Shown here piece by piece: positions 3,159-50,459 of a stretch of DNA of 64,000 bases. Position 1 is the first letter of the stretch, and every line of letters starts with the position of its first letter. The notes below the pieces were generated by a model. The model made no database searches. It was given only the letters and a program-made list of their open reading frames with translations, and was not told the origin of the DNA. The translations under genes were made by a program, and so were the position numbers. Source of the stretch: Octopus vulgaris (Eukaryota); contig OX597817.1 in NCBI GenBank assembly GCA_951406725.2, forward strand, positions 7,378,001 through 7,442,000. The letters are read 5' to 3'.

Positions 3159-3555
3159 ACTCTCTCTTTTACTCTTTTACTTGTTTCAGTCATTTGACTG
3201 CGGCCATGCTGGAGCACCGCCTTTAGTCGAGCAAATCGACCCCGAAACTTATTCTTTGTAAGCCCAGTACTTATTCTATCGCTCTCTTTTGCCGAACCGC
3301 TAAGTGACGGGGACGTAAACACACCAGCATCGGTTGTCAAGCAATGCTAGGGAGACAAACACAGACACAGAAACACACACACACATACATATATTTATAT
3401 ATATATACATATATACGACAGGCTTCTTTCAGTTTCCGTCTACCAAATCCACTCACAATGCATTGGTCGGCCCGGGGCTATAGCAGAAGACATTTGCCCA
3501 AGATGCCACTGCGTGTGGGACTGGACCCGGAATCATGTGGATGGTTAGCAAGCTA
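3159..3555 (-). mobile_element. tRNA-derived SINE family A
   Basis: Near-identical reverse complement of 1527-1934, slightly 5'-truncated. Confidence 0.9.
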
Positions 3556-3569
3556 AATATATATATATA

Positions 3570-3783
3570 ACGGGAAGCTTTATGAAAATAGACAAAAGAC
3601 GAAGGCAGGTGGAAAACAAACAAACAATTGTATTAGTATGGCGCTCAGGAAATATAAATAAAACAAGTCTTTAACGTTTCGAGCCTACGCTCTTCAACAG
3701 AAAGATACACAGAGAGAAAAAAAACACAGAAAGAAGGAGAGAAAAAAATGCGTGCAGTAACTAACGAATCAACATGGCGATCG
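3570..3783 (-). mobile_element. ~200-bp hammerhead-bearing non-autonomous element, family H1
   Basis: Aligns end to end with 46615-46806 (+) and 50251-50459 (-); flanked by (TA)n. Confidence 0.8.
3668..3705 (-). ncRNA. Minimal hammerhead motif, A6U core variant
   Basis: UCUUU-CUGUUGA-A-GAGC guag GCUC-GAAA-CG-UU-AAAGA. Confidence 0.7.
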
Positions 3784-4020
3784 TATATATATATTGTAAA
3801 CAATAACTCTCTACTTGAGTGGGCCATAGTGCCCAAATTCTGACTTGAAAGACTTCACCAGGTGGTGCTATTAAGTTAGACATGGCCTGGGCCAATAATG
3901 GCCGAAACCTATCAAAGTATCAAAGTATATATATATATTCATGTGCGTGTGAGTGTGTATAAGCTTGTATATTTCTGTATTTGTGTAGTGTTTATTTATA
4001 AAGGCCAGAGTATATTTGTA

Positions 4021-11539: not shown

Positions 11540-11742
11540 GCGTGTGTACCGTTGGCGATTTTTTTTCCTCTGTCTTCCCTTCTCTGGATCTTTTCTTTCT
11601 CCTATGTTTCCGACGAAGAGCTCCGCTCGAAACGTTAAACCCTCCATCTTTCCTTCTTTCCTGAGCATCCAATAATACTATATTTGTTCCACGTCCTCAC
11701 GTTGTTTTGTTTTTTTTGTGCTTTCTTGTTTGGATTAACTTT
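11540..11742 (+). mobile_element. ~200-bp hammerhead-bearing non-autonomous element, family H2
   Basis: Aligns with 58934-59133; shares the downstream ttcctgagc…taatac…tttgt block with family H1. Confidence 0.8.
11606..11640 (+). ncRNA. Minimal hammerhead motif, U4C variant
   Basis: GUUU-CCGACGA-A-GAGC ucc GCUC-GAAA-CG-UU-AAAC. Confidence 0.7.
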
Positions 11743-28596: not shown

Positions 28597-28788
28597 TAAT
28601 AACATCGAAATATACCTTAGGAATGAGAACCCAGGTGCGAAATTTCCCCAAGATACCTGAAGAAGGCTGGAGGGTATAACAGCCGAAACGTTGTGTTAAC
28701 AACAAACAAGATGAGGACAAATGTCCGTCGAATATAAATAATGTAAATAAAGTACATAATTCCTCATCTCTTAAATATAGAACTGAAC
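28473..28788 (+). mobile_element. tRNA-headed SINE carrying a hammerhead ribozyme motif, flanked by a 10-bp TSD
   Basis: A box tggcgtagtgg (28483), B box ggttcgatcc (28527), (AAT)n, HHR; aaatccgaaa at 28463-28472 and 28789-28798. Confidence 0.8.
28653..28696 (+). ncRNA. Minimal type-I hammerhead ribozyme motif, canonical core
   Basis: AUAC-CUGAAGA-A-GGCUG gaggguauaa CAGCC-GAAA-CG-UU-GUGU. Confidence 0.8.
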
Positions 28789-46614: not shown

Positions 46615-46806
46615 TGTCGTTAGCCACTACACACATTTTTTCTCTCCTTGTTTCTCTCCTTGTTTCTTTCTGTGTCCCTTTCTGTAGAAGAGCGTAGGCT
46701 CGAAACATAAAAGACGTTTTCTATTCCTGAGCGTTATACTAATACATCTGTTTGTTTTGTACACCACCTGTCTTCGTCTTTTGTTTTTTTCATAAAACTC
46801 TTCCTA
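46615..46806 (+). mobile_element. Hammerhead-bearing element, family H1
   Basis: Paralog of 3570-3783 and 50251-50459; ends at (TA)n. Confidence 0.8.
46678..46713 (+). ncRNA. Minimal hammerhead motif, A6U variant, stem III mutated
   Basis: CUUU-CUGUAGA-A-GAGC guag GCUC-GAAA-CA-UA-AAAG. Confidence 0.65.
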
Positions 46807-50250: not shown

Positions 50251-50459
50251 ATAGGGAGAATTCACGAAAAAAAACAAAAGACGAAGACAGGTGATGTAGA
50301 AAACAAACAGATGTATTAGTATAACGCTCGGGAATTGAAAAAGTCTTTTACGTTTCGAGCCTACGCTCTTCCACAGAAAGGAACACAGAAAAAAACAAGG
50401 AGAGAAACAAGGAGAGAAAAAAAATGTGTGTAGTGGCTACCGATCCATCATGGCGACGT
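50251..50459 (-). mobile_element. Hammerhead-bearing element, family H1
   Basis: Paralog of 3570-3783 and 46615-46806. Confidence 0.8.
50345..50380 (-). ncRNA. Minimal hammerhead motif, A6U variant
   Basis: CUUU-CUGUGGA-A-GAGC guag GCUC-GAAA-CG-UA-AAAG. Confidence 0.7.

Follow-up and report, generated by a model that had tools for sequence, protein, structure and literature searches.

A Penelope-type minimal hammerhead motif with U at core position 6 in a high-copy retroelement lineage of Octopus vulgaris

The window analysed here is a stretch of 64,000 nt of the O. vulgaris genome, and a minus-strand insertion bounded by TA runs lies near its left end (Table 1). Judged from its sequence, this insertion is the 5′-truncated pLTR of a ca. 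4.5-kb Penelope-like element (PLE), inserted in (TA)n and, by its linker and targeting, of the Neptune or Nematis type (criteria in the available text of PMC8557442). The original prediction had taken the unit for an element of ca. 200 bp; the upstream extensions and the reverse transcriptase (RT) ORF described below identify it instead as the truncated end of an autonomous-type PLE. To its left, the window holds 242-nt copies of another abundant short repeat (1680–1921 and 3167–3408), which lie in opposite orientation and are 94% alike.

Table 1 Coordinates of the hammerhead motifs and their host insertions in the window.
Feature	Position	Strand	Remarks
Target (TA)n next to the element's 3′ end	3558..3569		
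5′-truncated 3′ end (pLTR) of a young Penelope-like subfamily	3570..3782	-	element's 3′ end at 3570
Hammerhead motif, minimal type I	3668..3705	-	predicted cut 3673/3672
Stem I	3701-3705 with 3668-3672		part of the motif
Core	3694-3700		part of the motif
A6U (U at hammerhead position 6)	3697..3697	-	
Extra A	3693		part of the motif
Stem II	3681-3692		part of the motif
GAAA	3677-3680		part of the motif
ACGU palindrome	3674-3677		part of the motif
(TA)n flanking the 5′ truncation point	3784..3794		
Sister-family copy	11561..11639	+	core CCGACGA (U4C, A6 kept), stem II GAGC-ucc-GCUC, stem I GUUU/AAAC
Older copy, A7 subfamily	46617..46799	+	G16.2>A
Older copy, G7 subfamily	50266..50456	-	

A search of the insertion against its own genome gave 879 candidates, 40 of which were scored; all 40 were near-identical and were listed at 100% over ca. 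213 bp. Each of 30 fetched loci had the same 3′ end base followed by TA, a few with only two or three TA units, and in most of them the sequence extended upstream by 60 to more than 1,500 bp beyond position 3782, where the window copy stops. When nine loci were extended to 10 kb, three (L031, L038, and L039) carried the motif twice, ca. 4.5 kb apart, flanking an RT ORF (Pfam RVT_1, E = 1.9e-7) that starts ca. 770 nt downstream of the hammerhead core. Direct reading of this ORF identified a Cx4CxxC linker preceding a GIY-YIG domain with the CCHH residues (IIY..CxxC..YIG, H, H, and E motifs; Pfam match E = 0.2). Its homologues are animal RT proteins, many of which carry GIY-YIG (PF01541), and copies of the older subfamilies also lie 3′ of endonuclease fragments in matching orientation. 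The pLTR–ORF–pLTR partial tandems and the 5′-truncated copies are both features of EN+ PLEs. The CX2-5CxxC linker and the targeting of a microsatellite (TA) agree with Neptune, and the linker is common to Neptune and Nematis (PMC8557442, available text). A stand-alone SINE, MITE, or retrozyme was ruled out, as each copy is one truncated end of an element that encodes protein; the non-coding tandem repeats of 170–400 nt with a canonical hammerhead that characterize non-LTR retrozymes were not found here.

All five long copies (L031, L032, L034, L038, and L039) lose the reading frame soon after their first ATG, at or next to a run of T/A near the ORF start, which may be due to assembly error or to decay. 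The length of this run differed between sequencing-run contigs. After the 5′ pLTR of L031, L038, and L039, the element sequence continues past the 3′ end point with a short TA stretch, which matches the (TA)n target and may be a source of priming microhomology.

Read as minus-strand RNA, 3668–3705 consists of UCUUU (stem I), CUGUUGA, an extra A, GAGC-guag-GCUC, GAAA, C-G-U-U, and AAAGA. The three cores in the window are those originally described, namely CUGUUGA (C3 at 3700, minus strand), CUGUAGA (46682, plus strand), and CUGUGGA (50376, minus strand), and the base at H17 varies among them as claimed (U, A, and A, in this order). The shared extra A after the core, stem II GAGC-guag-GCUC, GAAA, and CUUU/AAAG closing were likewise confirmed in all three. 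However, the 46682 copy carries G16.2>A, a product of CpG decay that disrupts its ACGU palindrome for dimer formation and had been overlooked. In folding, the predicted pair probability was 0.79–0.96 for stem I and 1.0 for stem II. The exact 25-nt U6 pattern matched 17,610 times in the genome and its reversed control 0 times, so that the motif is not a product of chance. Rfam reported no hammerhead on 3600–3783 and none among the best 150 of 281 matches on the window, all 150 of which were microsatellite-driven.

A relaxed motif scan of the window gave eight candidates, three of which were the A6U family. The copy at 11561 belongs to a sister family whose relaxed pattern had 14,922 genomic matches; among the first 100 listed, 96 had a 3-nt loop, and in those 96, A6 was present in 94 and C4 in 67 (counted by eye). 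Since the older branches of this family have U4, its U4C appears to be a second derived core variant. No RT match was obtained by tblastn within 1.5 kb in 30 of 30 sister loci (L160–L189), so that its PLE status rests on the likeness of its pLTR. Two old sister copies (L174 and L176) have G at position 17. Additionally, 28657–28700 on the plus strand belongs to another repeat family and holds a canonical CUGAAGA minimal hammerhead with stem II GGCUG/CAGCC and an ACGU palindrome.

To count the base at position 6, exact matches to the common 25-nt context were collected over the whole genome. The 17,610 U6 matches made up most of 18,333, the remainder being A6 (226) and C6/G6 (497; 89 C and 11 G among the first 100 listed). 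For an unbiased set, copies were located by an anchor lying outside the ribozyme, which matched 19,440 times; the first 90 regions of contig 1 yielded 94 extracts. After removal of 2 duplicates, 17 copies truncated near or past the core, and 1 local inverted duplicate, 74 copies were aligned. U6 was present in 72 of them, while N7 was U in 30, A in 22, C in 16, and G in 6, and H17 was A in 58 and U in 12. U6 also prevailed in a G7 subfamily (95/100; A6 2/100) and in the oldest sampled subfamily (87/100; A6 4/100). The original prediction of a natural A6U lineage is therefore borne out, and the alternative that the consensus has A6 is not. A single copy (L105) combines a UUCG loop II with U6.

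In a FastTree analysis of the flanks, in which many nodes were weakly supported, the A6 copies were scattered among the U6 copies of their own subfamilies; A6 copies within the family are scattered decay. The apparent A6/G7 and old A6 groups, tried as an A6 subfamily inside the family, dissolved in view of this scatter and the A6 counts above. An intermediate that combines A6 with a flank resembling that of the sister family was also rejected (1 of 27). Two A6 copies pair in the oldest clade of the flank-only tree, and there may accordingly be a small basal A6 group. A6 is present in the outgroup families, namely the two sister pLTR families and 56 minimal hammerheads of PMC4209133, whose descriptor demanded A6; from this we infer that U6 is derived and that A6>U arose once. 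The flank-only tree has the form of a ladder (U7>G7>A7>C7>U7) with four N7 changes along the master lineage, and the window copies match three of its rungs. Because these are rungs of a single master lineage, the window copies represent one U6 origin. The three had been called independent, which holds for them as insertions but not as origins of U6, all three having inherited one A6>U change.

Sequencing runs labelled as four organisms (X15, X16, X17, and X20) were compared with 3570–3783, and the family was present in all of them. Depth peaked over the hammerhead, loose ends occurred at 3665 and 3703–3704, and N7 and H17 varied. At a threshold of 5%, no variant row appeared at 3697, which is not proof of identity at that position.

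We examined constraint on a tree built from the non-ribozyme columns only, defining a shared change as a non-CpG change in at least three leaves; the analysis covered the first 12 Mb of one contig and used short alignments, simple parsimony, and low-complexity flanks. Sites with shared changes numbered 0/14 in the core, 1/16 in the stems, 1/4 in loop II, 2/2 for N7 and H17, and 35/78 in the flanks (p = 2e-5), and internal-to-tip changes were 2:30 versus 55:135 (p = 0.004). With a stricter flank set (17/50), p was 0.013 for the core and 0.002 when the stems were included. C3, U4, G5, G8, A9, G12, A13, A14, A15.1, and U16.1 were each retained in 71–74 of the 74 copies with no shared change, the extra A between 9 and 10.1 in 74/74, and G10.1 and C11.1 in 72/74 each. 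Loop II was also conserved in this alignment, and the ACGU palindrome (15.2–16.2) was present, departures from it being CpG decay. The per-position comparison thus shows that the core does not change at the flank rate, and the contrast between 0/14 and 35/78 indicates that the hammerhead fold is under purifying selection. These data also bear on the idea that A6U killed the ribozyme and that the motif has since been hitchhiking in the pLTR without function. Such a relic is highly unlikely, as many flank changes and four N7 changes have accumulated since U6 arose with zero shared core changes, even though A6 substitutions are deleterious in vitro (PMC3088659 and PMC9901934, available text) and hammerheads may just parasitise PLEs and be dispensable for their spread (Craig et al., PMC8557442).

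The closing pair of stem I covaries, being C:G in 80 U6 copies and G:C in 19 copies of the sister family. This covariation between families, together with a sister loop lacking AG, speaks against an overlapping DNA or splicing signal (either a 3′ splice site behind the polypyrimidine tract or an internal promoter) as the cause of the conservation. We hold that explanation to be very improbable, although the motif follows a long pyrimidine tract, the last bases of loop II are UAG, and the intron end of D. virilis Penelope maps to helix I (PMC4209133, available text). Four runs presumed to be RNA gave contigs over the pLTR and over the 5′ part of the interior without a GT-AG joint, which counts neither for nor against this explanation.

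For U6 itself, the chance that a single site shows zero shared change at the flank rate is ca. 0.66, so that U6 is possibly tolerated rather than selected. The original prediction of constraint at the core consequently stands for the fold, in which N7 and H17 are free, but not for U6, a single inherited event.

U6 is fixed throughout the master lineage, and we regard the motif as probably still a self-cleaving RNA, weak and assisted by dimer formation or by protein. Stem III would require two copies that pair through the ACGU palindrome; minimal hammerheads without a helix III loop are reported to cut only as double hammerheads and, in PLEs, to be slow and dimer-dependent (PMC4209133, available text). 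U6 would lower the cleavage rate through loss of the A6 contacts and through U6–A15.1 pairing in a rod-like off-fold. In the related case of A6C, cleavage is lowered but not abolished, at <0.1 per min and with a preference for Mn2+ (PMC3088659 and PMC7151607, available text), and mutants of the CUGA region score low in a deep mutational scan (PMC9901934, available text).

The off-fold was examined by folding five natural contexts. U6 completed the helix U4.G16.2/G5-C15.2/U6-A15.1 with a pair probability of 0.44–0.98, versus 0.00–0.23 with A6, and this helix is predicted to hide the dimer palindrome. The predicted cost of opening the core was higher with U6 than with A6 in only three of the five contexts. 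For the sister family, a common off-helix stabilised by both U4C and A6U was ruled out (pair probability 0.01). A selected switch, in which U6–A15.1 would lock the monomer and keep the 3′ hammerhead off until the element's protein or a second pLTR refolds it, seems unlikely to us. If it did operate, the RT-initiation end of the template would be protected, the lineage would have been helped to ca. 20,000 copies, and U4C in the sister lineage would have attenuated the same ribozyme a second time, independently.

The same predicted helix could instead serve a motif that no longer cleaves and is kept as a binding structure for the RT/EN protein or as a positioner of RT initiation, with U6 aiding the rod hairpin. 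This is possible, but we consider it doubtful. G8, G12, A9, A13, A14, and U16.1 have no shared change while N7 and H17 change, which is a catalytic pattern and not that of a simple hairpin, yet for the eight core bases that the rod fold leaves unpaired, conservation is not significant when they are taken alone (0/8 vs 17/50, p = 0.09). The conservation of G8 and G12 in these alignments favours a ribozyme over the RT-recognition structure. A binding role would nevertheless be in line with the effect of U6 on the off-helix, the conserved loop II, the damaged CUGA in each of two sister high-copy lineages, and the unimpaired in vitro insertion of PAc when its hammerhead was mutated (PMC11167929, available text), as well as with the absence of a pile-up at the cut site, described below.

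The predicted cut site lies 103 nt upstream of the 3′ end of the element, and copies run across it. Therefore, the RNA that was reverse-transcribed must have been uncut there or re-ligated, which is consistent with PAc, whose hammerhead needs the element's protein and whose main template is uncut RNA (PMC11167929, available text). Since such a template is required, we propose that slow cleavage by the putative ribozyme would be tolerable or of benefit. Of 91 unbiased copies, none had a 5′ end between −6 and +11 of the cut site, and ca. 7 of 49 TA-junction loci were compatible with the cut site in a 14-nt window (by eye), which is no excess given microhomology. As an indirect sign of self-cleavage, the 5′ ends are thus negative, a result that is compatible with re-ligation.

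These results bear on the questions of in vivo cleavage by Penelope hammerheads and of their retention in these elements. Across several subfamily replacements, purifying selection has maintained the entire fold in one lineage although a nearly invariant base of the core is altered, and the same holds for a sister lineage with U4C. As natural U6, A6, and C4 versions occur in near-identical context, a weak ribozyme and a protein-binding structure are directly testable against each other. Descriptors that demand CUGANGA miss ca. 18,000 motifs in this genome, so that statements that such elements lack a hammerhead may be wrong.

A natural A6U hammerhead was not found in the literature searched, outside which lay most subscription papers and the survey by Lunse et al. 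2017, reportedly a large survey of PLE hammerhead variants that may contain U6 examples. The one work retrieved for hammerheads together with A6U concerned a twister ribozyme. Natural U6 did not occur in the available portions of PMC6155905, PMC7229834, PMC11014351, PMC6765202, and 10.64898/2026.07.22.740005, nor is A6U mentioned in that of the PAc study (PMC11167929). Hammerheads in the pLTRs of PLEs are already known, and the present sequences suggest that U6 adds a new core variant to the Penelope minimal hammerheads, one that stands outside the consensus because the anatomy of minimal hammerheads is found here but the canonical CUGANGA core with A6 is not.

According to the available text of PMC4209133 (Cervera and de la Pena 2014), the metazoan PLE minimal hammerheads resemble the present motif in their location in both pLTRs, a helix I of 4–5 bp, the extra base between A9 and G10.1, G10.1–C11.1, palindromic 15.2/16.2, the lack of a real helix III, and mostly solitary truncated copies. 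They differ in that all 56 representatives in Fig. S3 have A6, although the descriptor demanded A6; the core variant reported there is U3-A8. The Bcep176 A6C hammerhead (Perreault 2011, PMC3088659; Naghdi 2020, PMC7151607; available text) is likewise a natural position-6 substitution, with low but detectable activity. However, it has C and not U, is one phage sequence compared with ca. 18,000 genomic retroelement copies here, and prefers Mn2+. The Neptune and Nematis EN+ PLEs (Craig 2021, PMC8557442, available text) share the RT, the CX2-5CxxC linker, GIY-YIG with CCHH, pLTR partial tandems, and (TA)n insertion, whereas their hammerheads are described as canonical. PAc, a Poseidon element of Anolis (PMC11167929, available text), resembles the octopus element in having a hammerhead in the pLTR, insertion 3′ ends downstream of it, and no RNA ends found at the cut site, but its ORF starts at stem II and not ca. 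770 nt downstream of the core.
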